A stretch of 64,000 nt of DNA, from assembly GCA_017305195.1 (NCBI GenBank), contig JAFKMU010000049.1:38638-102637 (forward strand). Direction: 5' to 3'. Each line of letters starts with the position of its first letter. The stretch's first letter is position 1. Below are positions 4,483-64,000 of the stretch, piece by piece. The DNA comes from Verrucomicrobiota bacterium (lineage in GTDB: Bacteria; Verrucomicrobiota; Verrucomicrobiia; Chthoniobacterales; Terrimicrobiaceae). A program made the translations under genes and the position numbers. The notes under the pieces are model-generated. The model ran no database searches. It was not told the origin of the DNA and worked only from the letters and a program-made list of their open reading frames with translations.

Positions 4483-4488
4483 AATATC

Positions 4489-7227: not shown

Positions 7228-7263
7228 TGCACTAGCAAGTTGAGTGCCTGATTTTGAACGCCG

Positions 7264-9895: not shown

Positions 9896-10013
9896 GAATT
9901 TCAGCGTCTAACGCAACCTGTTTATCATGAATGTGATGAGTGCTGTGAATGACGGTAAAAACGTAATTTCCGTTTGACAGCAGGGCAATGATGGCCCCTT
10001 ATCTTTACCGCGC

Positions 10014-10241: not shown

Positions 10242-10296
10242 CCGTCGGCATCTCGCTTCCTTTAAGGCGGCCCCGAGAGCCCGCCAAGGAGACTTA

Positions 10297-11785: not shown

Positions 11786-11789
<4 letters not shown>
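10854..11789 (+). CDS. pyrB: Aspartate carbamoyltransferase catalytic subunit.
   Basis: STRTR carbamoyl-phosphate binding motif and HPxQ (HEHPTQ) and HPGP motifs. Start overlaps the pyrR stop (ATGA). Confidence 0.9.
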
Positions 11790-14208
<2,419 letters not shown>

Positions 14209-14285
14209 AGATGGACGGGGCGCCTTGTGGTTGACCGGAGGTTTTTCCTTGCGGGTTGTAAGGAATCTGGCATTAGCCTTTTTTC

Positions 14286-16611: not shown

Positions 16612-17548
16612 CTTGCAGAATTTCGTCCACCCTACGACGAACAGCCGCCACGTCCAGTGCCGAAAGGTCTCCGCCGGGGGCGGTGATGACGGAAACATGA
16701 TCGTTGGCGGGCGCCCAGATCTGCGGGTCGGTCGGGCCGAACATCAGCAGGCAGTTTGCGCCTGCCGCCGCCGCCAGGTGAGAAATCCCGGAGTCATGTC
16801 CGACAAACAGGGAGCTCCGGCCAAGGACCGCGCCCAGGACAGGCAGCGAAATGCCCTCAAGAAACGTCATTCCCTCGGAGGGAAGTGAGCTGCGCAAGGC
16901 TGCAAGACGCGGCGTATCGGACTCCCCTCCGACTACGAGAATCTTGTCCCAGCGTCCCGTACGATGCTCGGCGGCGAGAAACTCCTGCCAGGCAGGAAGC
17001 GGCCAGTTCTTGCGCTCTCCGCCGCTGCCGGGATGGACTGCGAGCACTCGGGAATCCTGCTGGCTCTCCACCCACTGTTTTGCGATCGCGAGATCCTCCG
17101 GCGATGGGAAAAATTCTGCGGCTGGGTCCTCAAGCCAGAGAGCCATTTGCTGGAGGGGCTGTGCCAGCTGGCGGGCGGCGTGATCGGCGTCTCCGATCTT
17201 GGGAGAGACGGAGATCAGGTTTTTCACCCCGGCCTTGCGCAGGCTCGTTTCGAAGAGCTGGTCGGGGTCGTAGATGTAGCTGATGACCTGGTGAAACCCG
17301 GCAAAGTATTCCGAGAGATCGGAGTCGAGGTCGGACTTTGGATTAAAGAATCCCGCCAGCGGGCCGTACTCGATGGAACGGGTTGCGTCGGCGTAGTAGC
17401 GCTGTTCGGCCAGCGAGGCGATATGCCGGTAGCCGAGGATTTCGATATGGGCCTCGGGGAAACTTTCCCTGAGAAGGCCGATGGCGGGAAGGGTGAGGAT
17501 GAAATCCCCGATGGCCCCTCCGCGAATGACAAGGATGCGGCCTGCCAT
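16601..17548 (-). CDS. Glycosyltransferase family 9 (ADP-heptose:LPS heptosyltransferase-like).
   Basis: N-terminal ILVIRGGAIGDFILTLPAI and a C-terminal HDSGISHLAAAAG motif typical of GT9 (RfaF/WaaC-like). Confidence 0.8.
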   Translation of the reverse strand: MAGRILVIRGGAIGDFILTLPAIGLLRESFPEAHIEILGYRHIASLAEQRYYADATRSIEYGPLAGFFNPKSDLDSDLSEYFAGFHQVISYIYDPDQLFETSLRKAGVKNLISVSPKIGDADHAARQLAQPLQQMALWLEDPAAEFFPSPEDLAIAKQWVESQQDSRVLAVHPGSGGERKNWPLPAWQEFLAAEHRTGRWDKILVVGGESDTPRLAALRSSLPSEGMTFLEGISLPVLGAVLGRSSLFVGHDSGISHLAAAAGANCLLMFGPTDPQIWAPANDHVSVITAPGGDLSALDVAAVRRRVDEILQDVR

Positions 17549-17560
17549 GAGGCCGACAGC

Positions 17561-17749
17561 CTAGTGGTTAAACTGCTGCATCTGGGAGCCGAGGGCGCCG
17601 CCTCCCTCCCAACTCTGGGGCTTGTTCCAGGGAACCGTGCCGCCAGCCTCCTGGGCCGTGCGGTCTTCGTCGCTCATCGGGGCGCACCCCGTGACGACCG
17701 CCGCGAAGGCGACGGCGCAGAGAAGGGCGAAGATTCGACGCTGCAGCAT
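17561..17749 (-). CDS. Small putative lipoprotein (62 aa).
   Basis: Signal peptide with a VTGC lipobox. It lies between the coiled-coil gene and the GT9 gene, on the same strand. Confidence 0.35.
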   Translation of the reverse strand: MLQRRIFALLCAVAFAAVVTGCAPMSDEDRTAQEAGGTVPWNKPQSWEGGGALGSQMQQFNH

Positions 17750-17770
17750 GGGCGATGCGTAAAGAGTCCT

Positions 17771-18556
17771 TTATTCGGCAGTCGCCTGATAGATCACCCG
17801 ATCACCGGGATTGATCACGACGCCCTGAGGGACGCTGTTCGAGACGATGTCGGCGATGGAGGTCGAGGGCTCGACCGAGGTCACACGGACCTTGCCGATC
17901 AGCTGACGACCGCGCTTGATGAGCAGCTCGGCATTGTTCACGACGCCATTCTTGTCACCGAGGCTGAGAACCACGAAGTTCCAAGCGGGATTGACGGCGA
18001 GGATCTTGCCTTCCGTACCGGGGCGCATGAGGCCCATCTTGCGATCTTCGTCAGCCTGACGGTACTTGCTTAGCTCGGCGGTCTGGTTATCCAGCTTCTG
18101 CTGGAGCTGGGCGATGAGCGTCTCCTGTTCCTTCTGGACAGCGATCTGATCCGCAGTCGGGCCCGTCTGAGTCGGGGTTACCTGAGCGGCCTTGAGATTG
18201 TCGATTTCCTGCTGCTTGGCCTGGACGTCCGCCTGAAGCTGGGCGACCTGGCTCTCGGCGGCGGTCTTCTGGGTCGTCACACTGGTGACGTCGGTGCGAG
18301 CCTTTTCGACATCGCTCTGGAGCGATGCGACCTGGCTTGCGGCCTGATCCCGTTCGGCCTTGGCCGTGGTGAGACTCGTATTGGCTTCCGCCAGTTTCTT
18401 CTCGATGGCGGCTTGCGCCTGCTGCGCCTGAGAAATCTTCGACTCACTCGTGGTGAGAGATTCTCGAGCGGCGTCGAGTTTGGTTTTGTTCAGGAATCCG
18501 AGGACTCCGGAAGCGACTACGAACACGAAGGAGGCGAACAGCAGGATTTTTCCCAT
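17771..18556 (-). CDS. N-terminally anchored coiled-coil protein with a C-terminal beta-rich domain, function unknown.
   Basis: N-terminal TM helix, about 150 aa of Q/A/E-rich heptad-like sequence, then the GKILAVNPAWNFVVLSLGDKNGV...GKVRVTSVEP domain. Confidence 0.5.
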   Translation of the reverse strand: MGKILLFASFVFVVASGVLGFLNKTKLDAARESLTTSESKISQAQQAQAAIEKKLAEANTSLTTAKAERDQAASQVASLQSDVEKARTDVTSVTTQKTAAESQVAQLQADVQAKQQEIDNLKAAQVTPTQTGPTADQIAVQKEQETLIAQLQQKLDNQTAELSKYRQADEDRKMGLMRPGTEGKILAVNPAWNFVVLSLGDKNGVVNNAELLIKRGRQLIGKVRVTSVEPSTSIADIVSNSVPQGVVINPGDRVIYQATAE

Positions 18557-18848
18557 AGTTAACTGGAGGCGATTTTGGCAGCAGGGTTCTTGCTAGCAGG
18601 GGTTAGCCCGATGAGCAAGAGGCAATTACTTTGGCAAATCTTTGAGTTTGCGTCCAGTTCTTTAATCAGTAGGTTGTCCATCGCCAGAGACTATGGACTG
18701 CGGACGGAAGAACCCCGCCAGGGCAGGAATGCAGCAACGGTATTTTGCTCCTCTTTGCCGTAGTTCTCTGGCACTTTTCTTTTCCTGGCCCGGTGCCCGG
18801 CCCTCGGCGGCTTGACCTCTCCCTGCCGGATAATTACTCTGAAGCTCA

Positions 18849-19331
18849 ATGGATTGTGAAACTCTAGAACGCGTGCGTGGAAGCCTGATGGATTTTTTGG
18901 GCACCAAGGGATTGCGTCGCACGATCCAGCGGGAAGCCATCATTTCAGCGGCGTTTTCCACCAAGGATCATTTTTCCGCGGAGGAGCTTTTGGAAAAAGC
19001 GCGCCAGATCGAAAAATCCGTCTCCCGCGCCACCGTTTACCGCACTTTGCCGCTGCTGGTGGAGAGCGGGTTCCTCCGCGAGCTCGATCTCGGCGGGGAT
19101 GTGACGGTGTATGATCCGAATTTCGTCGAACATCCGACCCACAACCATCTGATCTGCGTGGACTGCAACAAGATCATCGAGTTCGAGGATACCAACATGG
19201 AATTGCTGGAAAATTGCATCACGCGCCGCCTCGGGTTCTCTCCCGCGTCGAAGGCGGTGAAGATCGAGGGTCACTGCGACGAACTCAAGATTCACGGTTC
19301 GTGCCGCCATCAGAAGGACAAGGACTCCTAA
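18849..19331 (+). CDS. fur: Fur-family metal-responsive transcriptional regulator (Fur/Zur/PerR type).
   Basis: Winged-helix (RATVYRTL) and metal site (HxH NHLIC, CxxC, HCDELKIHGSC). Confidence 0.85.
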   Translation: MDCETLERVRGSLMDFLGTKGLRRTIQREAIISAAFSTKDHFSAEELLEKARQIEKSVSRATVYRTLPLLVESGFLRELDLGGDVTVYDPNFVEHPTHNHLICVDCNKIIEFEDTNMELLENCITRRLGFSPASKAVKIEGHCDELKIHGSCRHQKDKDS

Positions 19332-19343
19332 TCATTTTCAGCC

Positions 19344-20711
19344 ATGTGGAAAGGCCGCTTCAAGCAGGCTCAGTCGAGTCTGCTCAAATCCTACGGGGAA
19401 TCTGTATCGTTCGACGCCCGACTGTATCGTCATGATATCCGGGGGAGTATTGCCCACGCCCGGGCCTTGACCGCTGCGGGCATCCTGACTCCGGAGGAGT
19501 TTGCCGCCATCGAGTCGGGCCTGCGCCAGATCGAGGTGGAAATCTCCAGTGGCGAGTTCGTTTTCGACATTGACCTCGAGGACGTGCACATGAACATCGA
19601 GGCCGAGCTGACGAAGCGCATCGGAGCGGCCGGGGCCAAGCTCCACACCGCCCGCAGCCGCAATGACCAGGTGGCGCTCGACCTGCGCCTCTATCTGCGC
19701 GACGAAATCGAGGGAATCCGGGAGCTGGTGCGCGATTTTCAGCGGGCCCTCGTCGGGCTTGCCGCCCGCCACGAGGACGCCGTCATGCCGGGGTACACTC
19801 ATCTGCAGCGCGCCCAGCCCGTGCTCGTCGGCCATCATCTGCTGGCCTATGTCGAGATGGCGGAGCGCGATCATGGCAGGCTGGGGGATGTATTGACCCG
19901 TCTCGACCAGATGCCGCTCGGGTCGGGCGCGATTGCCGGGTCGACCATCATTCTCGATCGCGAGGCGGTTGCGAGGGAACTCGGCTTTTCCGGGGTGACG
20001 CAGAACAGCATGGATGCGGTTTCCGATCGCGACTACGCGCTGGAGTTGCTTTCCGCCCTGGCCATCCTCGGGATGCACCTTTCGCGACTCAGCGAGGACG
20101 TGATCCTCTGGGCCTCGGCGGAGTTTGGATTTATCGAACTGAGCGACCGTCACACGACCGGTTCCAGCCTGATGCCGCAGAAGAAGAATCCCGACATTGC
20201 GGAACTGACCCGCGGCAAGACGGGACGCCTTTACGGCAATCTCATCTCGCTTCTCACCACGATGAAGGGTCTGCCGCTGACGTACAATCGCGACATGCAG
20301 GAGGACAAGGAGGCGATCTTTGATTCCGTCGATACCGCCAAGGCTGCCCTGGCGATCTTTGCCGAGATGATGGAAGCCGCGAGCTTCCGGACCACGGTGA
20401 CGGCAGAGGCAACGAAAGACCCGAATCTCCTCGCCACCGACCTTGCCGACCGCCTTGTGCTGGGCGGCGTGCCTTTCCGTCAGGCTCACGAGATCGTAGG
20501 GAAACTGGTGGCCCTCGCTGCCGAGCGGGGCGTTGGGCTGCATAAATTGCCCGAGGCGGATTACCTTGCCGCCAGCTCCGTGCTGACCTCGCAGGTGATC
20601 GCAGAAACATTCAGCGTGCAAACCGGCCTCACGGCTCGCAAGGCGCCAGGCGCTCCATCGCCGGAGAATCTCTCCCGCCGTCTGGCTCACTGGAAGGCCG
20701 TGCTGGCCTAG
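19344..20711 (+). CDS. argH: Argininosuccinate lyase.
   Basis: Fumarate-lyase signature GSSLMPQKKNPD and overall ArgH organisation. Confidence 0.9.
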   Translation: MWKGRFKQAQSSLLKSYGESVSFDARLYRHDIRGSIAHARALTAAGILTPEEFAAIESGLRQIEVEISSGEFVFDIDLEDVHMNIEAELTKRIGAAGAKLHTARSRNDQVALDLRLYLRDEIEGIRELVRDFQRALVGLAARHEDAVMPGYTHLQRAQPVLVGHHLLAYVEMAERDHGRLGDVLTRLDQMPLGSGAIAGSTIILDREAVARELGFSGVTQNSMDAVSDRDYALELLSALAILGMHLSRLSEDVILWASAEFGFIELSDRHTTGSSLMPQKKNPDIAELTRGKTGRLYGNLISLLTTMKGLPLTYNRDMQEDKEAIFDSVDTAKAALAIFAEMMEAASFRTTVTAEATKDPNLLATDLADRLVLGGVPFRQAHEIVGKLVALAAERGVGLHKLPEADYLAASSVLTSQVIAETFSVQTGLTARKAPGAPSPENLSRRLAHWKAVLA

Positions 20712-20716
20712 GAACG

Positions 20717-21283
20717 ATGTCGGATTCCGGCTGGAAGACCCTCAAACGGGAGCGCATCTGCCTGTCCCCGTATGTGCCGGTCTGGCAGGAGAGCGTCGCT
20801 ACGCCTACCCGGCCGGACGGGGTCGAGTGGACGGTGGCACGTCGCCCGACCGCTGCCGTCGTCGCGCCGCGCACTCCCGAGGGACGCTACATTTTGATCC
20901 GGCAGGAACGGATTCCCATCCGGCGAGCCATGTGGGAGTTTCCCGCCGGGCAGGTGGAGGGAGAGATCACCGAGCAATCGATCCGCGACACGGCTTTCCG
21001 GGAATTAATTGAAGAAACCGGCCTGCATTGCACGGGGGTGCTTATCCCGCTGGACTTTTTTTACTCCTCGGCGGGATTCACCGATGAGCGCGGTTTTCTC
21101 TTTCTCGCCACCGACGTCATCCCGCATGAAAAGGGAGCGTCGCCGGACGAACTCGAAGCGATCCTTGAGGTCCGGGCGTTTTCGGCGGAAGAGTTGAAGC
21201 ACATGGTGGCGACTGGAGAGATTTTCGACGCGAATACCCTGTCTGTCTTCGCCCGGCTGACGGCTCGAGGCCTTCTCGTATGA
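20717..21283 (+). CDS. Nudix hydrolase (ADP-ribose pyrophosphatase-like).
   Basis: Nudix box GQVEGEITEQSIRDTAFRELIEETG. Confidence 0.8.
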   Translation: MSDSGWKTLKRERICLSPYVPVWQESVATPTRPDGVEWTVARRPTAAVVAPRTPEGRYILIRQERIPIRRAMWEFPAGQVEGEITEQSIRDTAFRELIEETGLHCTGVLIPLDFFYSSAGFTDERGFLFLATDVIPHEKGASPDELEAILEVRAFSAEELKHMVATGEIFDANTLSVFARLTARGLLV

Positions 21284-34041: not shown

Positions 34042-36168
34042 ATGGCCACACCAAAATCGATCGCCAAGAAACCCGAAGACAAAGCCGGAAAGAACGCTAA
34101 GCGCCCCGGAGGCGCTGGCACGCCCGTATCCAATCCACCTGAAGAGGCTCCCAAGGAGCCCGTGGTGAAGCAGGAGGCTGTGGACCTCCTGGAGCCCAAG
34201 AAGAAGGTCAAGAAGCGCGATGATTCCGTCGGAATCCGCCGCATCCTTCCGCCCATTTCCAAGATCCAGGCCCGTCAGGAGCCTGCTCCCGCCCCGGCTC
34301 CCGTCGAGCCCGAGCCTGCTGTCGAGGAAGCCCCCGCACCCGTGGCCGAAGAGGCCCCGGTGGTCGAGGAAGTCGTCGAGGAGACGCCGAGCAACGTGAT
34401 CCATCTCAAGGCGTCCATCGCCGTGAAGGATCTGGCGCCCTTGATCAACATCAAGCCCTTCCAGGTCATCAAGGACCTGATGGAGCTGCAGATTTTTGCC
34501 AACATCAACCAGACTCTCGAGCTGGATACCGTGGCCAAGCTGTGCGAGAAGCACGGCTTCATCCTTGAGCGCGAGAAGAAGGACACCTCCAAGGGCCATC
34601 ACAAGGTCGAGGTGAAGGTCGAGGCTCCCAAGGAGCCGGAGAAGCCGAAGGAAGAGGCGCTCAAGCCACGCGCCCCGATCGTGACCTTCATGGGCCACGT
34701 CGACCACGGCAAGACCTCGCTTTTGGATGCCATTCGCAAGGCCCGCGTCGCCGCGGGTGAGGCGGGCGGCATCACCCAGCACATCGGCGCGTACAGCGTC
34801 GAGCGCAACGGGCAGCAGATTACCTTCCTCGACACCCCGGGCCACGCGGCCTTTACCGCGATGCGCGCCCGCGGCGCCAATGTCACGGATATCGTGGTCA
34901 TCGTCGTGGCGGCGGATGACGGTCTCATGCCACAGACGATCGAGGCCATCAGCCACGCCAAGGCGGCCAAGGTCCAGATCATGGTGGCCATCAATAAGAT
35001 GGACCTTGCAGCGGCCAACCCCGACCGCGTGAAGACCCAGCTCCAGGAGCACGGGCTTACGCCGGAAGACTGGGGCGGTGAAATCATCTGCGTGCCGGTC
35101 AGTGCGACCAAGGGCACGGGCATCGATGATCTGCTGGAAATGATCAACCTCCAGGCGGAAGTGCTGGAGCTCAAAGCCGATCCCAAGGCGCTCGCCCGAT
35201 GCAATGTCATCGAGGCGCAGCTCGAGCAGGGTCGCGGCCCGACGGCCACGGTCATTGTGCGCATGGGCACGCTCCACGTGGGCGACACCTTCATCTGCGG
35301 CAACTACTGGGGCAAGATCAAGCAGCTCATCAGCGACCTCGGCAAGCCCATCAAGTCCGCCGGTCCGGCCATGCCGGTAAAGGTGCTCGGCCTGAGCGGC
35401 CTGCCCAATGCCGGTGACGAACTCGTGGTCATGGACGACGAGCGCGCCGCCCGCGCCCTGAGCGAAGAGCGGCTCCTTGGCCTCCGCCAGAACAAGCTCG
35501 CCGCTCCGCAGCGCGCGACTCTGGAAAACCTCTTTGCCAACATCGCCGAGGGCCAGAAGCCCACGCTCCAGGTCGTCCTCAAGGGCGACGTGCAGGGTTC
35601 GCTGGAAGCTCTCGTCGGCGCGCTCAAGGACATCCCGCAGTCGAAGATCAGCCTCGATATCATTCACGCCGCGGTCGGTCCGGTCACGGAATCCGACGTG
35701 CTGCTCGCCAGCGCCTCGAATGCCGTCATCATCGGCTTCAGCGTCAAGGTGGAGAACAACGCCTCCACGGTGTCGAAGCGCGAGGGCGTCCAGATCAAGC
35801 TCTACAGCATCATCTACGAGCTGATCGACCAGGTGAAGGAAGCCATGGCGGGCATGCTGGCCCCGGAACTCCGCGAGACCGTCATCGGTCACGCCGAGGT
35901 GCGCCAGGTGTTCGATCTCACCAAGGGAAAGGTCGCCGGTTGCTACGTCACGGACGGTCGCATCGCCCGCACGGCGCGCGCCCGCGTGCTGCGCAAGCGC
36001 CAGCCGATCTACGACGGCGGCATGGCGACGCTGCGACGCTTCCAGGACGAGGTCAAGGAAGTGCGTGCGGGTCTCGAGTGCGGCATCCGCCTCGGCGACT
36101 TCACCGAGTATCTGGCCGAGGACATCATCGAGTGCTACACCCTTGAGAAAGTCGCTCAGCAGCTCTGA
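34042..36168 (+). CDS. infB: Translation initiation factor IF-2.
   Basis: G domain ([21 protein letters not shown]) with a Pro/Ala-rich N-terminus. Confidence 0.9.
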
Positions 36169-54523: not shown

Positions 54524-54936
54524 AGCAGATTAAAAATCTGTAGCCAAAAAGAATTCCCCCCCGCCAGTCAGGAGCCCGGGCTTTCCTCCACGGAGACGCC
54601 CGGGCTCTTGCATTTCCGTGGATGATCGGGACTGATCGCTAACAGGCCGGGCCGTGCAGTGTGCGCCGCCGATACTATAGCAGGCCGCCCGCGGGTTCCG
54701 GCACGATCGAGACATTCGCGGAATCGGAGGAGAAGGGGAGGTTTATGCTCTCCGCAGACTCGAAATGTTTCTGTCCTGAGAGAGGGCCTCGCACCCGGCG
54801 GTGGCGACGATTTTCCTGCGCCTCGCGCCCGGCATCGTCGCCTTCGCCGTCCTCCTCGGCGCAGCGCTGGCGGTGTGCTATTATCGGTAGGGGGGCCAGA
54901 TAGACCCTGCCGGGGCTGCGGTATTTGTGGAGGGCC

Positions 54937-55572
54937 TTATGTGCGTCTGGCCGGATTTTTCGAGGGCCAGATTTTAGGGCTATAGATCGATTCGAAGACC
55001 GCAAAAATCTCCTGCATGATCTCGGGGTGATCTCTTTGGGGAGCGAAATATAAGCAGTCACCCTCGACTAAAAGGTGATACTCCAGATCACCATTCACGA
55101 GATGGCAATCCGGACCAAAAGCTTCCGCTTGGTGTTGGCGTTCTCTTTCAGACTCCTTTCGGGGTGCATCGCAGGAACGGTGAGCCGTGAATTTCATGCG
55201 CATAGGCATGAGGGAGACAATAAAAGTTTTCTTCTTTTCGTATTCAGGAATGTGCGCCTTCGCAAAGAAGTAGAACTGCCCCAGGCGATTTATATAAGCG
55301 ATGACATCGTGTGCGCACGCGTGGTGCGCCGTCTTTTCCCAGTCTAGCCCTGTAGCTTGGACGAGCTTCCGATTCTCAAGATAACGGTCATAGTGGAATT
55401 GAATTCCCGCCACCATGAAGGCGGCACCATGGTACTGCGGGCGCTTTTCGACCGGGAAGCCGTTTTCATTGGCCGCTCGGACGTACCACGCCATTGCGCG
55501 ATCGGGGTAATGCAGTTCATCGAGGGGAATTCCCTCCCAGCGATCGCGAATTGACATGACAAAATCATACAA
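54937..55572 (-). CDS. Hypothetical protein (211 aa) in the lower-GC island segment.
   Basis: Intact ORF with atypical (lower) GC. I could not recognise any motif. Confidence 0.4.
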   Translation of the reverse strand: MYDFVMSIRDRWEGIPLDELHYPDRAMAWYVRAANENGFPVEKRPQYHGAAFMVAGIQFHYDRYLENRKLVQATGLDWEKTAHHACAHDVIAYINRLGQFYFFAKAHIPEYEKKKTFIVSLMPMRMKFTAHRSCDAPRKESERERQHQAEAFGPDCHLVNGDLEYHLLVEGDCLYFAPQRDHPEIMQEIFAVFESIYSPKIWPSKNPARRT

Positions 55573-55778
55573 AGCATTTGAGGATTGTTGTCAAATTATC
55601 GTCCCGGGTACTCTTTGCGATCTTTTCCCGGCGCGGAACCGGCTGCGATTTCTGAACATTAGCATGTTTGCCAGTGTTGCAGCCCTAGCGGGGTTTTGAG
55701 CGGATTTCTCCCGTTTCGGGCCCTTGCTTGGTAAACGCGTATCCCAAATTGCCCGTGTTTCTGCTTATGTGTTGGCCC

Positions 55779-56018
55779 ATGGCGTATAAGCAGAAATGCG
55801 GCGGCTGCGGGCGGTGTCCGCGGGGGAACGAGGCGGGGCGGGCGGTGCTCGCGGCGATGTACCAGGAGGTGCTGTTTCAGCCCGGGCGGCGTGATCCGTG
55901 GCAGCGGGAGGCGGCGCGGCTGGCGGCGCAATACCTCGCCACGGGGCGCGAGGCGCACCGGCTGGCCTTTGCCCGGCACGTGGCCGGAATGCTCCACGCG
56001 GAGGCGGGGCGGGAATGA
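55779..56018 (+). CDS. Small Cys-containing ORF (roughly 52-96 aa depending on start) translationally coupled (ATGA) to the primase-like gene. Start is uncertain.
   Basis: Its stop TGA overlaps the ATG of the next gene at 56015-56018. It contains CGGCGRCP and is preceded by the inverted repeat TCTGCTTAT-N17-ATAAGCAGA (55747-55781). Confidence 0.3.
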   Translation: MAYKQKCGGCGRCPRGNEAGRAVLAAMYQEVLFQPGRRDPWQREAARLAAQYLATGREAHRLAFARHVAGMLHAEAGRE

Positions 56019-57409
56019 CGGGCGGTTCGCAAATGACGACGGAGCAGCTCCCGCGTTTCGTGCGCGACCTGCTCTCGGCTCCGCCCCGCGCGGGGCAGGG
56101 GGTGAATCTCTACCTCTTCCGCCTCGCCCGCGTGCTCCACGCCTACCGCACGGAACGCGAGATCCTCGCCATGCTCCGCGCCTCCGTGGCCGGATGCGGG
56201 CGCGAGGTGGGGGAGCAGGAGATACTGCGGGCGGTGGAAAATTCCCGCCGCGTCGCGTGGCAGCCCGGCGTCGCGAATGGCCCGGCGCGTCCCGCCAGCG
56301 CCTCGCTCTGGCCGCCGCGTGAACCCGCGCGTCGCGCCGCCGTGGTCGCGCAGGGCGACGGCTTCACCCTGGCCGACCTGTGGGAATCCTCCCCCGTGCG
56401 CTTCGACGACGACGAGCCGCAGGCCGAGGCCGTGATCGACGCGCTCTTTCCCGGCGATCCGCTGCTGTGTTGCGGGCAGAGCAAGTCCCTCTTTGCCACG
56501 CGCCGCCGCTCCCGCTGGCGCGGTCGGCTGGCCGGGCTCGCGCTCATCGTGCCATCGCCCATGACGAGCCGCACCGGGCGCACGCAGGATGGCCGCGTGA
56601 GCCAGCACACGCTGGCCAATACCGGCCCGCGCCGTTACCTCATCATCGAGCAGGACGGCGGCACGCCCGACGAACAGGCCGCCATCCTCGCGCACCTCGG
56701 CCACATGGCCCCGCTCACGCTCGTCGTGCACAGCGGCAGGCGGTCGCTCCACGGGTGGTATCACTGCGCCGGGCGCGCCGAGGCGGAAACGCTCGCTCTC
56801 ATGCGCTACGCCTACGTGCTCGGCGCGGATCGCGCCACCTGGACGCGGTCGCAGTTTGTCCGCATCCCCGACGGCCTCCGCGACAACGGGCAACGTCAAT
56901 ACATCCTCTACCTCGACCCCGAGCCCGCCCTCAACGCGGAGCCCTGCGCCGAGGAGGGCCGGGAACCCGAGGCCCGCCGCAACCCGGAGCCGTCTGCCGT
57001 GGCGCATCTCGCCCGCGAGGCGGAGCTTCCCCGCGAGGTCAATAGGAACCCGGAGGCTCACGCAGCGACGGCAGCGCACCGTCCTCCGGCACCCCGCCAC
57101 CTCAAACCCGAGCCGCCTTCCGCCGGTGATGAGAGTAACTCGGAGGCTCGCCGCAACCCGAAGCCGTTCCTCTTGGCGAACCTCACCGCCGGAGCGGAGT
57201 CTCGCAGGGAGGCAGGCAGCAACAATGAGTCGCGCCCAGGCTCGGCAGCGAACCTCAACCCCGCGTCGCCCTCCGCCGATGATGAGCGCACCCCGGAGCC
57301 GTCTCCCGAGGCGCTCCGCGCCCGCGAGGCGGAGCTTCCTTCGCACGCGGCACGCAACCCCGATTCGCCTCCCACGGTCAGCCGGAGGCGGTATGTCCTC
57401 CGGGAATAG
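56015..57409 (+). CDS. Primase-polymerase-like (archaeo-eukaryotic primase superfamily) replication protein with a repetitive, disordered C-terminal tail.
   Basis: Motif HSGRRSLHGWYHC resembles AEP motif II (sGxxxHxw/y). An acidic DGGTPDE region follows. The track ORF start at 55898 is a likely over-extension; the ATG at 56015 overlaps the upstream stop. Confidence 0.45.
   Translation: MTGGSQMTTEQLPRFVRDLLSAPPRAGQGVNLYLFRLARVLHAYRTEREILAMLRASVAGCGREVGEQEILRAVENSRRVAWQPGVANGPARPASASLWPPREPARRAAVVAQGDGFTLADLWESSPVRFDDDEPQAEAVIDALFPGDPLLCCGQSKSLFATRRRSRWRGRLAGLALIVPSPMTSRTGRTQDGRVSQHTLANTGPRRYLIIEQDGGTPDEQAAILAHLGHMAPLTLVVHSGRRSLHGWYHCAGRAEAETLALMRYAYVLGADRATWTRSQFVRIPDGLRDNGQRQYILYLDPEPALNAEPCAEEGREPEARRNPEPSAVAHLAREAELPREVNRNPEAHAATAAHRPPAPRHLKPEPPSAGDESNSEARRNPKPFLLANLTAGAESRREAGSNNESRPGSAANLNPASPSADDERTPEPSPEALRAREAELPSHAARNPDSPPTVSRRRYVLRE
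56930..57390 (+). repeat. Degenerate tandem repeats inside the 3' part of the primase-like gene, encoding Pro/Glu/Ala/Arg-rich repeats.
   Basis: Repeated DNA segments, e.g. gaggc(c/t)cgccgcaacccg(g/a)agccgt and cccgcgaggcggagcttcc twice. Protein repeats include EARRNPEP and AREAELP. Confidence 0.45.
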
Positions 57410-57595
57410 ACATCGCCCCGGCGTCAATACTCACACCCCCGGCAACCCACAACGACCACCCACCATAACCCCGGCAACCAACCACGAACACAACCCCGAG
57501 CCCGCCATTCACCGGCAGGCCCACCGGAGCCGAACCACCGCTTCCCTCCGCGCCAAGTCTGAAAACTGAACCACTGAAAACTCACCACTACCTCT

Positions 57596-58804
57596 ATGAC
57601 CTTCGCTAAAAACTGGAACCTCTTCGCCGACTACCTCAAAGCCCAAAACGCCGCCGATGCCGCAGCCGCTGCCCAACGCGCCGGGCATGCTCCCGCGAAT
57701 GCCGACGGGAACGCCCCCGCCGCTCACCGCGCCGACGGCAACACCGCCCCCGCGCACGCCGCCGACAGCGTGCCCGAGCCCGTGCCAGCCTTCCTCCGCG
57801 ACGTGGCCGACCCCGCGCCGGGCTTCCCGCCGGAATCCCCCCGCGACGGCGACCGTGAAGCCGCCCGCGAACTCGTGCTCAGCCAGGCCATCACCACCGG
57901 CACACGCGACTCCACCGATCACCGCTCACAGGGCATTCCCTCGCGCCAGCCCGTGCTGGGCGATTGGTTCATGGAGGGCGACCTCGGGTTCATCTACGCG
58001 CCGCGCGGATTAGGCAAGACGTGGTTCGCCCTCGGCCTCGCCACCGCCGTCGCGAACGGGCGCGCCTTTGGCCCCTGGACGCCCGAGGCCCCGCGCCGCG
58101 TGATGTACGTCGACGGCGAGATGCCGTGCGAAGCCCTCGACGCGCGCATCGGCGGCATGGGCGAGAGCAAGCAACTCCTCGTGCTCAACCATGAGGAGCT
58201 GTTTCACTACACCGGCGAGGTGCTCAACCTGGCCACGCCCCCGGCGCAGCGCGCCCTCACGGGCTACCTCCTCGCCCAGGGCATCGGCATCCTGTTCCTC
58301 GACAACCTCTCGTGCCTCTTCTCCGGCATGAAGGAAAACGACGCCGACGATTGGGAATCCGTCCTCGGGTGGCTCCTCACCCTGCGCCGCCACCGCATCG
58401 CCGTGGTCGTCGTACACCACTCCGGCCGCAACAAGGAAACCATGCGAGGCACCTCCCGCCGCGAAGACGCCGCCTTCTGGGTCATCCGGCTGGATGAGCT
58501 TTCCGAGGAGCCCGGGGAGGGCGCGGCCTTTCGCTCGCTCTTTACGAAGGATCGCAACAGTCGCTCCGCGCAGGGCTGCTTCGAGTGGCGTTTCCTCACC
58601 GGTGCGGACGGAGTAGTCAACATCCAGATCAGGCCCGCCAATAGCATCGATACCTTCCGCCAGTGGGTGGCCGACGGCCTCACCAGCGCCGAGGAAATCG
58701 CCCGCGAAATGGGCATCTCGGCGGGCACCGTCTCGCGCATGGCCAAGAAAGGCATCGAGGCGGGATGGCTCTACAAGCGAGGCCGCGAGTATGCTCTGCG
58801 TTGA
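57596..58804 (+). CDS. AAA_25 / RepA-DnaB-like RecA-fold ATPase (plasmid/phage replicative helicase-loader type) with a C-terminal HTH.
   Basis: Walker A YAPRGLGKTW, Walker B FLDNLS and a C-terminal EIAREMGISAGTVSRMAKKG helix-turn-helix. Confidence 0.65.
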   Translation: MTFAKNWNLFADYLKAQNAADAAAAAQRAGHAPANADGNAPAAHRADGNTAPAHAADSVPEPVPAFLRDVADPAPGFPPESPRDGDREAARELVLSQAITTGTRDSTDHRSQGIPSRQPVLGDWFMEGDLGFIYAPRGLGKTWFALGLATAVANGRAFGPWTPEAPRRVMYVDGEMPCEALDARIGGMGESKQLLVLNHEELFHYTGEVLNLATPPAQRALTGYLLAQGIGILFLDNLSCLFSGMKENDADDWESVLGWLLTLRRHRIAVVVVHHSGRNKETMRGTSRREDAAFWVIRLDELSEEPGEGAAFRSLFTKDRNSRSAQGCFEWRFLTGADGVVNIQIRPANSIDTFRQWVADGLTSAEEIAREMGISAGTVSRMAKKGIEAGWLYKRGREYALR

Positions 58805-58809
58805 TCGCC

Positions 58810-58970
58810 GGGATTTCGTTGCGCAGCCTAAGGGGAGCCGTCCTGCAATGAAGCGCAATGAAACCCGCAACGGGCCTGCAATGAACCGCTTTTCTCCTCG
58901 GCGAGAGTGAAATGGACGTGAAATGGGAGCCTGCAATGAAGGAGGGGAATTTCTCTCCTTCATTGCACGG
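58810..58970. repeat. Iteron-like repeat cluster A: multiple copies of a CTGCAATGAA / GTGAAATGG motif, a 63-bp unit (58853-58915) also present at 59771-59833, and a perfect hairpin TGCAATGAAGGAG-N10-CTCCTTCATTGCA (58933-58968).
   Basis: Direct sequence comparison of the two loci. The unit copies are about 88% identical. Confidence 0.6.
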
Positions 58971-59085
58971 GTCCTGCCCTCGCCGGGAGGGGGAACTTCG
59001 GCGTTCCCACCGCTCCAGAGAGAGTCGGAGCGAAGAGGCTGGGGGACGGAGGGTGTGTATAGACCACCCTCCGCCCCGACTGCTC

Positions 59086-59640
59086 TCAGCCCTTCGCGAG
59101 GCGCATCGCCTGCCTCACGAGCAGCGCGATCTCCACAGCGGCGCGAATGCCGCCGCACCACGCCGGGGTGGCCCGGTGGGTGTCAAACAACCGCACCTCC
59201 TCATCCATGGCAGCCACTCTCCAGCACTCCAGCTCCTCGCTGGCGGTGAGCGGACGCATGGTGGCCAGGCCCGTGCGACGGGCCGCGATCAAGCGCCTCG
59301 CCCGGCGGGCGATCTCGGCCAGCCGCCCGAGGTTCACACTGAGGGCGCACCGCTCCCGGCTGCCCTCTGGCGTCTTCTCCCTCACGTAGACCGTCAGGCG
59401 ACCCAGCCGCGCGGATATGCGCGCCTCTGCGCCATCCGGGCACACCACGCTCCAGGACGCGCCCTGGGAGGGGTTATCGCTGCCAAACGCCGCGAGGCGC
59501 TCGATGATTGTGACCCCGGCGCTCGATGAGGCCGGACTACTGGCTTTTGCCATGTATTGCATGGGAACTCCTTGGATTGATGTTAGAGATTCCCGCGCAT
59601 GGGCATGAGCGTCAGGCTCACCCCACGTGCGGGTAATCAA
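59086..59640 (-). CDS. Hypothetical protein (up to 184 aa, possibly starting at the internal MQYMAKASS). It is flanked by the two repeat clusters.
   Basis: An ORF with no recognisable motifs that sits exactly between repeat clusters A and B. Confidence 0.35.
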   Translation of the reverse strand: MITRTWGEPDAHAHARESLTSIQGVPMQYMAKASSPASSSAGVTIIERLAAFGSDNPSQGASWSVVCPDGAEARISARLGRLTVYVREKTPEGSRERCALSVNLGRLAEIARRARRLIAARRTGLATMRPLTASEELECWRVAAMDEEVRLFDTHRATPAWCGGIRAAVEIALLVRQAMRLAKG

Positions 59641-59707
59641 TCTGAGTTCCTTGGCTGCCAGCTAAGTCTTTGCCGCCAGCAGCGAAGCCGAGGCTAGGAA
59701 ATGCCCG

Positions 59708-59900
59708 GCGGGATTTCAATCCTCATTTCATTGCAGGAAATCCCCCTTAGGGCGTGCAATGAGCAATGAGGCGCAATGAAACCCGAAACGGGCCTGCAAC
59801 GAACCCGCTTTCCCCTCGTAAAGAGTGAAATGGCCCGGAAACGAGCCGCTGCAAGGAACCGCGATTTTTCGCCCCCTTTCATTTCACCCCCGCACCGCTA
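59708..59900. repeat. Iteron-like repeat cluster B: GCAATGA and TCATTGC motifs in both orientations, a second copy of the 63-bp unit (59771-59833), and an inverted segment of the cluster A 5' end (GGATTTC...GAAATCC).
   Basis: Direct sequence comparison with cluster A. Confidence 0.6.
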
Positions 59901-59945
59901 AGGCTCCGCATTGACCCCGCACCGCGCTTCGCTTATTCCCGTGCG

Positions 59946-60458
59946 ATGCGATTTGCGATCCTTGGTCTTCTTTGTGTTTCTTTGCTTTCCGGCTGCTATG
60001 TCTCGCAGCGCGAACTGGCCGTCCAGATACCCGCCACGGTGCCCGCCGGGACGCAGATCGCGGTGCTGAAACCCGCCGACGCCACGTTTGAATCCGACAA
60101 CTTCCCCGGCTCCGGCGGCGTGGTGGCGGGCAAGCTCACGGCGGCGCTCATCCCGTACTACCCGGGTTCCAGCGTCGTCACCTCCGGCACCCCCGGCGGC
60201 TATGTGGTGAAGCCCCAGCTCCTGCATTGGGAAGACCGCGCCACGGAATGGTCGGGCAAGGCCGACCGCGTGAAGGTCTCGCTCCCGCTCTACCGCGACG
60301 GCAAGCTCATCGGCTCCGCCCTCGTCACGGCGAATAGCAGTTGGTGGACGCTCGGCGGCGACCAGCCCGAGGACCTCATCGACCAACCCTTCGCCGTCTA
60401 CGCCGCCAAACTCGCAGGCCGCCCGGTCAAAGACTCGCTCGTGAAGGTGAAGGAGTAG
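59946..60458 (+). CDS. Putative lipoprotein (170 aa).
   Basis: Signal peptide with an LLSGC lipobox. Confidence 0.5.
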   Translation: MRFAILGLLCVSLLSGCYVSQRELAVQIPATVPAGTQIAVLKPADATFESDNFPGSGGVVAGKLTAALIPYYPGSSVVTSGTPGGYVVKPQLLHWEDRATEWSGKADRVKVSLPLYRDGKLIGSALVTANSSWWTLGGDQPEDLIDQPFAVYAAKLAGRPVKDSLVKVKE

Positions 60459-60655
60459 GGGGGCGTCCCGCGCCGGGCAGCGTTCCGGGCAAAGAAAAAG
60501 AACCGGAGGCCCGGCCTCATGGCTGACAAAGCAACCCCTCGGCGTACGCCCCAGCGGGGGCCTCCGGTCGGGTGATGGTTTAGAGCGCGACAGGCGCTAA
60601 GGCAAGCGCGGCGAAATCGGCTTGGCAGATGGCGCACAAAGTTGAGGCTTAGCGC

Positions 60656-61546
60656 GTGGACAAGACCTTGATCGCAGCCATTGTATTTTGCGCATACATC
60701 CTCCTCCCGTTTGTAGTGGGTACTTTGCTCGTCGTGGTGAAGGGAAAACGAAGCGGAGAGCGGTGGCCTGAGGATTTTAAGCTGTTGCGCGCGCCCGGAG
60801 AGACGCTGCGGCGGAAGATTTTTAAGATGGACGAGAATGTCCCGCAAAACGCCTTGGTCTTTGTTATCGCGCCGTGGCTGCTCGCCGGGTTGATCCTGTG
60901 GGGATTGCCAAAGCTGGGGAAGGGGTTCAATTTGCCTACCATCATTCTTGTGTTTGGTGTGCTGGTCGCTGGACTCGTGGTGAGTTGCTGGTGGGTGTAC
61001 AACCACTTTCTCAAGCGGCACCGTTACCTCCTCGGCTACCTCGGCGAGCGGGCGGTGGGGGAATGGCTCGACACGCTGCCCCGCGAATACCGCGTCTTTC
61101 ACGATGTGCCGGTGGATGAGGGCAAGGGGGCGTTCAACCTCGATCACGTCGTGGTCGGCCCCACGGGGCTCTTTGCCATCGAGACCAAGACCCGGCGCAA
61201 GGGCCGCGCGCGGGAGGGCTTCGCGGATCACAAGGTCTTCTACGACGGGCGGCAACTCATCTGGCCCTGGGCCGAGGACACCCACGGCCTCCAGCAGGCC
61301 ACCAACGAAGCGGAATGGCTCACAAAGTGGATTCGGCAAATGACCGGCCTCGACCTCGCCGCCCGCCCCGTGCTGGCCCTGCCCGGCTGGTGGGTGGAAA
61401 CCCGCACCCCCGGCCCCGTCGCCGTCCACAACCCCAAAAACCTCCCCTCCTACATCCTCGGCAAAGGCACCCGCACCCTCGACCCCCAACAAATCGACCT
61501 CATCGCCCGCCAACTCGACTCCCGCTGCCGCGACGTGCGGGATTGA
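60656..61546 (+). CDS. NERD (nuclease-related domain) protein with an N-terminal double transmembrane region.
   Basis: Two N-terminal TM helices, then GERAVGEWLDTLPREYRVFHDVPV...FNLDHVVVGPTGLFAIETK, a NERD-type PD-(D/E)xK-like pattern. Confidence 0.7.
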   Translation: MDKTLIAAIVFCAYILLPFVVGTLLVVVKGKRSGERWPEDFKLLRAPGETLRRKIFKMDENVPQNALVFVIAPWLLAGLILWGLPKLGKGFNLPTIILVFGVLVAGLVVSCWWVYNHFLKRHRYLLGYLGERAVGEWLDTLPREYRVFHDVPVDEGKGAFNLDHVVVGPTGLFAIETKTRRKGRAREGFADHKVFYDGRQLIWPWAEDTHGLQQATNEAEWLTKWIRQMTGLDLAARPVLALPGWWVETRTPGPVAVHNPKNLPSYILGKGTRTLDPQQIDLIARQLDSRCRDVRD

Positions 61547-61678
61547 GGGGGGCGAGTAACCGCGCAAAACCTCGGGTGGAGGAAATGCGCAGAGCACGCC
61601 TTCGGATTACTGGCTGGCCTGCCGAAGGAACGTATAGCCCCCTTTAGCTAAGCTGATCTGCTGGGGGGAGGAACGAGA

Positions 61679-62548
61679 TTACCGGGTGCGCTGCTTCCGG
61701 GCGCGGCGGAGACCGAGCATGAGCACGGCTCCGGCAGAAACCAAAAGGAAGGTCGAGGGTTCCGGTACGGCATTAAATGTCGAGGTGCCGACGATTGCCC
61801 CCGCATCGCCGCCGCTGTCGTTCACGATCGCATAGGCCGTGTGGGTGCCTGCGGTCAGGTAAACCGTGCCGGTAAACAGCGTGAGCGAACCGAAATCCCC
61901 GTTACCGGAGGTGCCGGGCTGCAAGACATAGGCAGGACTCGAGCCAAAGGGATCCACGACTCCCGGCACCGTGCCGCCGGGTTTGTTGCTGGAGATCTGC
62001 GTGCCGCCTACGACGGTGGCAAAGTTGCCTGCGTGTGTGTTAAACCACGCCTGATCCGAGGAGTTGACGGCTGTCGGCGCGACATAAGCCACCGACCCAT
62101 CGACATTGAATGACATGAAATCATCCCCGGAGCCATAGAAGTTGAAAGTATAGTTATCCGAGACCTCGATGGTGAAGGTTTGCGCCAGGACATAGGAGTA
62201 AGCCTGCCAGTTGCCGAAAGTATAGGCCGAGGCGGAGGAGTTGTCTCGCAGGGTGACCCAATGAGCCCCGCTGCCGTCACCGGCATTGGAGCTTCCCCCG
62301 AGCCAGACGTTTGGCACGGAGCCAGACACGTAGGGCGCGTAAGGAGTCGCATTGATGGCGGGATCCGGCGTCGTAAAGGTCGGCGCGGCGACGAGGGACC
62401 AATGAGCATCCTGCACCCCGGCGCCCGGCGTCTGGTTGTAGCCGGTTGCGAAAATCGTACCTGCTGACGCATTCCCGGCCAGTGTCCCAATGGCCAACGC
62501 AGCGAGAGCTACTGATCGATGCACTCTGGAGAAAACGGGGAAACCCAT
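61679..62548 (-). CDS. Secreted PEP-CTERM-anchored protein rich in Gly/Ser/Thr.
   Basis: Signal peptide, then C-terminal VPEPSTFLLVSAGAVLMLGLRRARKQR (a PEP-CTERM exosortase sorting signal). Confidence 0.65.
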   Translation of the reverse strand: MGFPVFSRVHRSVALAALAIGTLAGNASAGTIFATGYNQTPGAGVQDAHWSLVAAPTFTTPDPAINATPYAPYVSGSVPNVWLGGSSNAGDGSGAHWVTLRDNSSASAYTFGNWQAYSYVLAQTFTIEVSDNYTFNFYGSGDDFMSFNVDGSVAYVAPTAVNSSDQAWFNTHAGNFATVVGGTQISSNKPGGTVPGVVDPFGSSPAYVLQPGTSGNGDFGSLTLFTGTVYLTAGTHTAYAIVNDSGGDAGAIVGTSTFNAVPEPSTFLLVSAGAVLMLGLRRARKQRTR

Positions 62549-62721
62549 ATCGTGAGATATTAGCTGGATTTATACATGCCCCCCGAGATTCCTGACAAGA
62601 CATATTGCGAAGGGAGCGGCGGCACGTGGGGGATTGAGAGGGGGGACAGCAAGAGCCGGGGAATCTCGCGCGCTAAGCTCCCGGGGATTGCCTCCCGCCG
62701 GGGAACACGCTAAGCACATCC

Positions 62722-63702
62722 ATGCGGTTTTGGTGGGTCAACCATAAGAAGACGTTTCGCCACGAGGTGGAGAACGGCTACATTTGGTCCCCGAAACGCA
62801 AACGCAACGGTGCGCTGAATCACTTCTATGAGACCCTGCGCGATGTGCAGCAGGGCGATCTGGTCTTTTCCTTTGCCTCGACCAAAGTCCAGGCCGTCGG
62901 CGTGGCCCGGCAGCCGTGCTATTCCTGCCCAAAGCCCGACGAGTTTGGCAAAGTGGGCGAGGGGTGGAATACTCTCGGCTGGCGCGTGGATGTGGATTTC
63001 ACCCGCTTCCCGAGGCCGCTGCGGGTTAAGGATGCCATCGGGGAGATTCGCCCGCTTTTGACCGAGCGCTATTCGCCGCTGAAGCCCACGGGCGACGGCA
63101 ACCAGAATGCCTACCTCGCGGAGATTCCCCGCACCCTGGCGGAGAAGGTGCTGGCGCTCGCCGACCCGCTCCTGCTCGGCCTCATGGAGAGCGCGCCCGT
63201 CTTGCGGGAGGATTCGCCCAAGGCATCCGCCTTTGAGCCGTCGGTGCTGGTCGAGTGGGAGGAGCAAATCGAGCGCCAGATCGAGGCGACGATCAGCATT
63301 CCCGAGACGACGCGCCGGGCGCTCATCGAGGCCCGCCGGGGGCAGGGGCGCTTCAAGCAGGAGGTGCACCGCTTTGAGCGCGAATGCCGCATCACCCATG
63401 TGGACAATCCCATGCACCTCATCGCCAGCCACATCAAACCGTGGCGCGAATCCTCCGACGCGGAACGCCTCGCCGCAGGCAACGGCCTGCTCCTCACCCC
63501 GTCGATCGACCACCTCTTTGACCGGGGCCTCATCACCTTTGCCGACGACGGCGAGGTGCACGTCTCACCCGTAGCCGCCGAAGACGATTCCCTCCGCAAA
63601 ATGGGCGTCAACCCGCCCATCTTCTCCGGCAAGTTCAACTCCGACCAAAAACACTTCCTCGACTACCACCGCAGCCAGATCTTTCTGAAGTCGGCGGCGT
63701 AG
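62722..63702 (+). CDS. HNH-family endonuclease with an N-terminal PUA/EVE-like putative modified-base reader domain. A candidate modification-dependent (type IV-like) restriction endonuclease.
   Basis: C-terminal HNH_2-type motif (ECRITHVDNPMHLIASHIKPW ... NGLLLTPSIDHLFDRGLITF). The N-terminal FWWVNHKKTF...GYIWSPK region is PUA/EVE-like by pattern only. Confidence 0.6.
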   Translation: MRFWWVNHKKTFRHEVENGYIWSPKRKRNGALNHFYETLRDVQQGDLVFSFASTKVQAVGVARQPCYSCPKPDEFGKVGEGWNTLGWRVDVDFTRFPRPLRVKDAIGEIRPLLTERYSPLKPTGDGNQNAYLAEIPRTLAEKVLALADPLLLGLMESAPVLREDSPKASAFEPSVLVEWEEQIERQIEATISIPETTRRALIEARRGQGRFKQEVHRFERECRITHVDNPMHLIASHIKPWRESSDAERLAAGNGLLLTPSIDHLFDRGLITFADDGEVHVSPVAAEDDSLRKMGVNPPIFSGKFNSDQKHFLDYHRSQIFLKSAA

Positions 63703-63837
63703 TTTTGATGTTATGCTAACCTAAATTAATGGAATTGCTCTGGATGTGGAAAATATTCGCGAGCTAACGAGGAGGTGTGAATACTACAATACCACCCGGG
63801 GGCTAGAGTGGTGTAAATTAGAGATACACGAAATGTT

Positions 63838-64000
63838 ATGAATCAGGAAATAGAGAGGCCAGCATATATTGCTCTGAAAGATGTAGTAACGGAATTTGTT
63901 GAAGGCAGTGTTTCCGGGGCTTTGCTAATTAAAGGGCCTTGGGGTATAGGGAAGACCTGTGCGGTGCGCGAAGCGCTCGGTGTCAAAAGTAATGGGAAGC
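63838..64000 (+). CDS. KAP-family P-loop NTPase, 5' partial (continues beyond the window), in a low-GC segment.
   Basis: N-terminal LLIKGPWGIGKTCAV matches the KAP Walker A G-x-W-G-x-GK-[ST]. Flanking sequence is AT-rich. Confidence 0.5.
   Translation, partial: MNQEIERPAYIALKDVVTEFVEGSVSGALLIKGPWGIGKTCAVREALGVKSNGK

Follow-up and report, generated by a model that had tools for sequence, protein, structure and literature searches.

IncQ plasmids (RSF1010) combine the RepB' primase and the RepA helicase with an iteron-containing oriV, and the Staphylococcus aureus pathogenicity islands (SaPI) and phage-inducible chromosomal islands (PICI) carry a pri-rep-ori unit. Integrated elements may also hold defence hotspots, in which one fixed slot takes up varied cassettes. 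Many KAP proteins have transmembrane (TM) helices inserted in their NTPase domain. Among restriction enzymes, VcaM4I is a characterised EVE-HNH protein that flips 5-methylcytosine or 5-hydroxymethylcytosine (5mC, 5hmC) into a pocket and restricts 5hmC phage (PMC7897488). The stretch of DNA analysed here, called the window, comprises 64,000 nucleotides (nt) of a Verrucomicrobiota bacterium, and its part 54524-64000, 3' of oprB, carries genes that recall each of these systems. With a probability of roughly three in four, this region is the integrase-less remnant of a tRNA-integrating island, vertically inherited and accompanied by conserved single genes and by gaps that have filled with cassettes.

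From left to right the region contains the following features:
54524..54936, no strand: left junction, after the oprB stop codon, from blastn against relatives
54937..55557, minus strand: gene for a 206-amino-acid (aa) protein, 211 aa if an upstream TTG is used; no family match
55767..56018, plus strand: ORF83, an open reading frame (ORF) of 83 aa whose 3' end overlaps the primase start
56015..57409, plus strand: primase-like protein of 464 aa with an archaeo-eukaryotic primase (AEP) fold according to a fold model; no Pfam match
57596..58804, plus strand: AAA_25 helicase with a C-terminal winged-helix domain (Pfam 2e-27)
58816..58967, no strand: iteron-like array A, directly after the helicase stop, with GCAATGA in both orientations
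59086..59562, minus strand: gene for a 158-aa protein with no family match; the span 59086-59640 first given for it uses an upstream TTG start
59709..59886, no strand: iteron-like array B, in which the repeat region recurs
59946..60458, plus strand: DUF4823 lipoprotein (Pfam 6.8e-18) with an LSGC lipobox
60656..61546, plus strand: membrane NERD protein (Pfam 8.5e-16) with three N-terminal TM helices
61679..62548, minus strand: PEP-CTERM surface protein (Pfam and TIGR02595, 3e-4)
62722..63702, plus strand: EVE-HNH restriction endonuclease of 326 aa (HNH_2 8.1e-12), a VcaM4I homologue
63703..64000, plus strand: start of the variable cassette slot, with the first 54 codons of a KAP-like NTPase gene (63838-63999) that runs past the window

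The preliminary description took this region for a defence and replication island, and the genes that it listed are all present in the sequence, including the replication module, the iterons and the defence-type genes.

The origin of the left part is best seen at a related locus, L092 (ERZ19026195 scaffold_303), where a complete 13.76-kb island lies in tRNA-Tyr (7022-20841). Two perfect direct copies of a 64-nt sequence form the ends of this island (7022-7085 and 20778-20841), the second of them overlapping the tRNA-Tyr gene in its 3' part. Between these ends are arranged, in order, an integrase (448 aa), ORFs of 318 and 64 aa, the primase, the AAA_25 helicase, GAAACGA iterons, small ORFs and a SNIPE/T5orf172 nuclease. 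The primase and AAA_25 proteins are 57% and 50% identical, respectively, to those of the window. At another related locus, L091, an integrase lies four genes upstream of the primase and a DUF3631 protein stands where AAA_25 would be; a small ORF of 63-69 aa occupies the same position ahead of the primase in L090, L091 and L092. An alignment-based scan of IMG/VR viral contigs yielded 455 relatives of the primase at 23-50% identity, many on contigs of 20-60 kb and some on contigs with integrases. Since the primase and AAA_25 lie within the island of L092 bounded by attachment (att) repeats, since L091 carries an integrase, and since some of the viral contigs do so as well, the module belongs to a family of integrating elements. 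None of the viral-contig primase relatives has an AAA_25 partner, and they presumably use a different helicase. Queried as single sequences, the primase, helicase, KAP-like and 158-aa proteins had no relatives in the viral contigs, where only the primase alignment matched. Neither the L092 cargo nor the window genes have a PHROG structural or packaging match, and because no such genes are recognisable in L092 it is not called a satellite.

In the window strain, the corresponding ends are missing. Past position 64000 the locus was followed on contigs of 'Verrucomicrobia bacterium 61-8' (GCA_001897195.1) and of GCA_036776765.1, which are 99.99% and 99.87% identical, respectively, to the last 11 kb of the window. 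No integrase or other recombinase and no tRNA was found from oprB to katG, and a repeat search of this interval revealed no att or flanking direct repeat at its edges. The sole tRNA gene of the window, tRNA-Leu(CAG) (35402-35497, minus strand), lies 19 kb upstream and is not associated with the region. The idea of a discrete and recent island, with an integrase, tRNA or att site beyond the window end, thus found no counterpart between oprB and katG.

The arrangement of the locus in related genomes indicates how long it has been in place. In Spartobacteria bacterium LR76 (QAYZ01000016.1), the closest species-named genome with 92% nucleotide identity over the fructose phosphotransferase system, fruK and oprB, and likewise in L089, the order ORF83, primase, AAA_25, iterons, DUF4823, NERD and EVE-HNH is identical and lies between oprB and oxyR(LysR)/katG. 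Synonymous divergence (dS) of this backbone is 0.23-0.52, compared with 0.27 for oprB, and the ratio of nonsynonymous to synonymous divergence (dN/dS) is below 0.6 for every backbone gene: 0.03-0.09 for DUF4823, 0.14 for EVE-HNH, about 0.25 for ORF83, 0.30-0.55 for AAA_25, 0.45-0.50 for the primase and 0.36-0.49 for NERD. The shared order and the oprB-like dS mean that the backbone was present in the common ancestor and has been inherited with the chromosome. No backbone gene varies in presence or absence in LR76 and L089; only cassettes do, namely the 206-aa, 158-aa and PEP-CTERM genes and the KAP-like gene with its 97-aa neighbour. At the left junction, homology to LR76 stops at 54621, and homology to L089 reaches 54767 and returns for 54821-54891 (blastn). 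Both relatives have about 8-9 kb between oprB and the element that are not in the window strain (L007 11471-21395 for LR76; 801-9298 for L089). These encode unknown proteins of 185 and 361 aa with lower GC, a Laminin_G/PKD surface protein of ~1913 aa and DUF2188, together with a major facilitator superfamily (MFS) transporter in LR76. At this site the window strain has just ~54 nt and the 206-aa gene.

On this reading, positions 55767-59886 would represent the replication module of a tRNA-integrating island family, in which a small ORF is followed by the AEP-fold primase, the AAA_25 helicase with its winged-helix tail and the iteron arrays. In this lineage the integrase and att ends would have been lost, and the module would have been passed on by vertical descent at one constant position between oprB and oxyR/katG. 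Its first gene, ORF83, is 84-90% identical in LR76 and L089 (dN/dS 0.24-0.28). The 464-aa protein that follows has no match in Pfam, NCBIfam, PADLOC or PHROGs. Its conserved domain spans residues 1 to ~305 (56015-56930), and the first ~300 residues belong to a large family of 'hypothetical proteins' of ~297 aa, with 830 matches, hundreds of them at 57-65% identity and none carrying a Pfam domain. An AlphaFold model built from 29 homologues is confident (predicted local distance difference test, pLDDT, 87), and fold comparison of this model places the protein in the AEP fold. The motifs E212-x-D214, S240-G241...H246 and D272 do not vary across the 29 homologues, of which the window protein is one; motif I reads ExD in place of DxD, and an sGxxxH motif II and an acidic motif III are present. 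Fold model and motifs together support membership of the AEP superfamily, from which primase activity is predicted. The original call of a primase accordingly holds at the level of fold, but no sequence family backs it. The remaining ~160 aa form a low-complexity C-terminal tail (56951-57409), a lineage-specific expansion that ranges from 0 to ~240 aa among close homologues (proteins of 303-543 aa). Three imperfect 53-nt repeats (56978-57339) that might be taken for iterons were rejected as such, as they lie within this variable-length part of the primase ORF.

The helicase matches AAA_25 (2e-27; RepA/DnaB-type) and the PHROG primase/helicase families (2e-22), and its Walker A motif GLGKT and its LDNLS motif are invariant in four relatives. 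The winged-helix assignment at its C-terminus corresponds to a MarR_2 match (1e-5 at residues 363-395) that falls below the Pfam 27-bit cut-off. A low-complexity N-terminal extension (57649-57766), which includes a 30-nt tandem repeat at 57701-57766, is specific to the lineage.

Two iteron-like arrays accompany the helicase gene. Nine of the 22 copies of GCAATGA in the window fall within two short stretches (58845-58966 and 59728-59779), and the motif TGCAATGAA occurs five times compared with 0.39 expected, a count reached in 0 of 100 shuffles. Array A is closed by a near-perfect palindrome at 58932-58967, TGCAATGAAGGAG...CTCCTTCATTGCA, with a 13-bp stem made from two inverted iteron motifs. 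The iteron region is present twice as a 96-nt direct repeat (58845-58940 and 59763-59858; 80% identical). Short motifs in both orientations also form arrays at the corresponding place behind the helicase gene in LR76, L089 and the distant L092, where the motif is GAAACGA; in LR76 and L089 these motifs are arranged as ~242-nt tandem units. The locus thus shows clustered repeats beside a replication gene in a position conserved among relatives, as is expected of an iteron-type origin. The repeat arrays do not correspond to a known RNA, as the entire 20.6-kb locus had no Rfam match at E<=1. In a working module, the winged-helix domain of the helicase would bind the iterons and the helicase would open the origin, after which the primase could prime synthesis.

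With its primase, its helicase that ends in a DNA-binding domain and its iterons, the module resembles both the IncQ plasmids and the pri-rep-ori unit of PICI. It differs from IncQ in having no separate RepC-like initiator; the iterons are probably bound by the winged-helix domain that forms part of the helicase. It also differs from both in that its primase family is outside Pfam, NCBIfam and PHROGs, in that no packaging or capsid-redirecting genes are recognised, and in that the window copy is without an integrase or att site.

Alternatively, the module could be part of a live element, satellite-like or capable of an episomal state, with iterons that still serve as its origin of replication and with mobility supplied by a helper phage or by an integrase gene located elsewhere. 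ORF83, the primase and the helicase are intact, with dN/dS below 1 and with their catalytic motifs kept, and every relative retains the iteron arrays, even in duplicate. At 13.8 kb the complete relative has the size of a satellite, and the 455 primase relatives in IMG/VR contigs point in the same direction. Against this, three species-level genomes have the module at one chromosomal site and in one gene order, and its dS is that of the neighbouring core gene. Searches for an att repeat, an integrase, a tRNA and recognisable packaging genes came up empty, and the viral-contig primase relatives come without an AAA_25 partner. A live element is therefore unlikely.

The module lacks an integrase and has nonetheless remained intact while species diverged, so a domesticated origin may also be considered. 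Such an origin would fire in place upon phage infection or stress and would amplify the dosage of NERD, EVE-HNH and the variable slot. This has a small probability, and the vertically inherited remnant of an integrating island is preferred to it.

To the right of the module, that remnant would be joined by three conserved single genes, which encode the DUF4823 lipoprotein, the membrane NERD nuclease-like protein and the VcaM4I-type EVE-HNH protein. For the last of these, an alignment with VcaM4I by phmmer (1.3e-75) is collinear over the full length, residues 1-323 to 1-308, and residues 1-128 align ungapped. Residues T11, E15, W22, P24, W82 and Q128 of the pocket, edge and wedge are identical, and Y130 aligns with Y131. 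In VcaM4I, P24, W82 and Y130 form the hydrophobic pocket, T11, E15 and W22 make the Watson-Crick-edge contacts, and Q128 acts as the wedge (PMC7897488). The nuclease domain matches Pfam HNH_2 (8.1e-12 at residues 222-273) and the PADLOC HNH family (6.5e-24), and its core segments HLIASHIKPW, NGLLL and DHLFD are identical to those of VcaM4I. Judged by sequence, the enzyme is a Type IV modification-dependent restriction endonuclease of a known family, and modification-dependent cleavage is predicted. Like VcaM4I (TspA15I group; PDB 6YEX; PMC7897488, PMC6765204), which has 309 aa as against 326, it begins with an EVE domain in which the residues of the base-flipping pocket and of the wedge are kept. 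The differences are the host (a verrucomicrobium rather than Vibrio) and a linker region that is 13-14 residues longer in the window enzyme, whose activity and modification preference are predictions. By homology, the enzyme would flip 5mC or 5hmC into its EVE pocket and cut modified phage DNA in its host. In LR76, the EVE-HNH gene is split by an IS3-family element (HTH_Tnp_1 and rve; 15447-16624) at a position that matches 63373/63376 of the window.

The NERD protein scores 58.9 bits against a cut-off of 22.1 bits and has the PD-(D/E)xK-type motif LDHVVV...AIETK, with no PADLOC match. Its family is large, with 365 cluster representatives of the same ~295-aa architecture at E<1e-30. Homologue contexts were read on three long contigs, and two of these three are housekeeping in character and the third lies beside a Type II restriction-modification system. 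Two unrelated assemblies (L176 and L177) share the neighbourhood TPR/ExbB-ExbD...NERD...SufE-TatD-ThiF. This shared housekeeping neighbourhood suggests that part of the family may serve outside defence, and any role of the window protein in defence is putative.

Turning to DUF4823, the protein is 96% identical in LR76 and L089. At 80 metagenomic loci, no gene is conserved beside its homologues, and NERD, primase, AAA_25 and HNH genes are all missing from these neighbourhoods. A conserved DUF4823-NERD pair was considered, and it is ruled out by these 80 unlinked loci and by the very different dN/dS of the two genes. DUF4823 is a strongly constrained stand-alone lipoprotein gene and not a defence partner.

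The intergenic gaps of the region would take up cassettes, the KAP-like and 97-aa genes in the gap between EVE-HNH and oxyR and the 206-aa, 158-aa and PEP-CTERM genes elsewhere. The first of these gaps has sharp edges: homology to L089 runs up to the stop codon of EVE-HNH, breaks off exactly there and returns within the convergent LysR gene, at its 3' end. In the window strain it holds a 578-aa KAP-like P-loop NTPase and a convergent 97-aa membrane protein (GC 0.40-0.46, GC at third codon positions (GC3) 0.38). L089 has a 655-aa OLD/AriA/PtuA-like ABC ATPase there (2.4e-17), and LR76 has PDC-S47/Abi_alpha (2.3e-37) with DUF3825. The slot between EVE-HNH and oxyR is a real hotspot of cassette turnover, with defence-type content that differs in three genomes. 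It resembles the defence hotspots of integrated elements in offering one fixed slot, from the EVE-HNH stop to the oxyR stop, to varied cassettes. It differs in its setting, beside a chromosomal fossil element instead of within a prophage or satellite that is active.

The full KAP-like protein matches the PADLOC candidate PDC-S49 (6.3e-27) over its N-terminal ~180 aa, and it matches Pfam KAP_NTPase (PF07693) at 3.7e-5, with 23.6 bits compared with a 20-bit cut-off, over a stretch of 47 residues. It resembles the KAP family in its Walker A motif, GPWGIGKT, and differs from it in the shortness of the Pfam match and in the lack of inserted TM helices in the NTPase domain, where the single hydrophobic segment is the Walker B strand. 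The C-terminal ~370 residues have no match. From PDC-S49 the protein is set apart by the extent of the match, which covers the first ~180 residues only, and by having almost no close relatives: a word-index search found five remote homologues, which carry PF07693. The KAP-like and 97-aa genes are convergent with a 14-nt overlap, and both are low in GC. As a conserved pair they are not supported, the nearest homologue with its context read being solitary and without a small membrane partner.

The other cassettes are equally restricted in their distribution. The 206-aa gene is a strain-specific insertion of foreign composition. Its product has two remote homologues only among 5.8 billion sequences, with an invariant R-x5-H motif. 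A mediocre model of it retrieves HEPN toxins among many generic helical bundles, which makes a HEPN-like fold a weak lead only. The 158-aa gene has the native codon bias (GC3 0.85, as against 0.66 for an overlapping plus-strand ORF) and lies between the two copies of the 96-nt repeat of the iteron region; its product has no family match and no relative in LR76, L089 or the viral contigs. LR76 and L089 have NERD and EVE-HNH but neither the 206-aa nor the 158-aa gene, and this shows that NERD and EVE-HNH do not need them. The PEP-CTERM gene is also a strain-specific insertion, as the gap between NERD and EVE-HNH measures just 26-34 nt in LR76 and L089.

Some rearrangement has taken place beyond the slot. 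Of the LysR/oxyR-like gene, the window strain has kept no more than the final ~240 nt (extension contig 13230-13480). The katG gene (extension contig 13718-15898) is inverted relative to LR76 and L089, where an intact LysR gene and katG are divergent neighbours; a second breakpoint of this inversion was not found. Just past the katG stop, a 51-nt piece of the EVE-HNH gene (62826-62876, codons ~35-51) is repeated at 84% identity, preceded by two more 21-nt copies in tandem. This repeat region corresponds to 66207-66322 in extended window coordinates (extension contig 13486-13601), and its site is the LysR truncation point.

With these genes in view, the proposal that the region is an active and recently acquired defence island, in which the 206-aa, 158-aa and DUF4823 proteins join NERD, EVE-HNH or KAP in an undescribed multi-gene system, can be assessed. 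Several features speak for it: the composition is patchy, several ORFs are unannotated, the KAP-like and 97-aa genes share a low GC and a convergent 14-nt overlap, and the EVE-HNH and KAP-like proteins do match defence-family hidden Markov models (HMMs). The matches in PADLOC, however, are to single-gene families only, and no two adjacent genes match one of its multi-gene systems. Weak matches to MADS (mad1, mad8 and the MAD6 N-terminus) reflect generic helix-turn-helix, P-loop and NERD segments and are far below the cut-off. Two of the three ORFs flagged as potential partners are missing from LR76 and L089, which retain NERD and EVE-HNH, and the third, DUF4823, is unlinked at 80 loci and under much stronger constraint than NERD. 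The NERD homologues are solitary, with housekeeping contexts on two of the three long contigs read, the KAP-like homologue that was read is solitary too, and no integrase or att site was found from oprB to katG. The preliminary description had itself named two findings that would tell against a defence island, namely conserved synteny without island boundaries and a lack of any defence phenotype or defence-family HMM matches. The backbone is indeed syntenic and without boundaries, but the defence-family matches exist. Overall, no undescribed multi-gene defence system emerges, and the proposal is quite improbable. A smaller alternative to the domesticated origin is that either the KAP-like protein with its 97-aa membrane neighbour or the 206-aa R-x5-H protein may be a new abortive-infection gene, and a defence role of the KAP-like or 206-aa protein is putative.

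The lower and patchier GC noted past oprB is borne out. GC is ~0.64-0.70 up to oprB, and 500-nt windows beyond it show three dips, to 0.52 (55000-55499), 0.56 (59500-59999) and 0.51 (63500-63999). GC3 deviates likewise: native neighbours have values of 0.84-0.89, the PEP-CTERM gene has 0.71, the 206-aa ORF 0.58 and the KAP-like gene 0.38. That these dips are noise in an ordinary chromosome of resident housekeeping genes with no mobile-element history is hardly credible: the backbone is syntenic and vertical, and DUF4823 and some NERD homologues have housekeeping contexts, but primase and AAA_25 homologues lie within an att-bounded, integrase-bearing tRNA-Tyr island, the KAP cassette has a GC3 of 0.38 compared with 0.85 in native genes, each of three genomes has a different defence-type cassette, and an IS3 element has inserted in the LR76 EVE-HNH gene.

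Several points weigh against the preferred reading of a vertically inherited island remnant. Only two syntenic relatives, LR76 and L089, are available, and farther away, in Chthoniobacter flavus, LW23 and other genomes, synteny past oprB is lost, so an empty site is not visible. The dN/dS values of 0.3-0.55 for the primase, helicase and NERD genes are compatible with either relaxed constraint or an arms race. The iteron motif is GCAATGA in the window and GAAACGA in three relatives, and no clear covariation with the recognition helix of the helicase is seen among them. An origin function of the iterons is suggested by sequence pattern, and the activities of the primase and helicase are predictions. 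The 9.3 kb past position 64000 were read from near-identical contigs and not from the window itself, and the family matches of the KAP-like protein are confined to its N-terminal P-loop region.

The novelty of the locus is modest. It lies in a primase family that has no profile, in the island family that this primase marks in Verrucomicrobiota, and in the near-orphan KAP-like and 206-aa genes. Adjacency to defence genes is insufficient here for inferring a new multi-gene system. For an uncultured verrucomicrobial lineage, a run of 'hypothetical' genes can now be read as a fossil integrative element, a Type IV enzyme and a bounded cassette slot. More broadly, the primase family marks tRNA-integrating islands of Verrucomicrobiota with nuclease cargo, and a profile for this family would make it easier to recognise such islands, with their defence cargo, in metagenomes from soil and freshwater.

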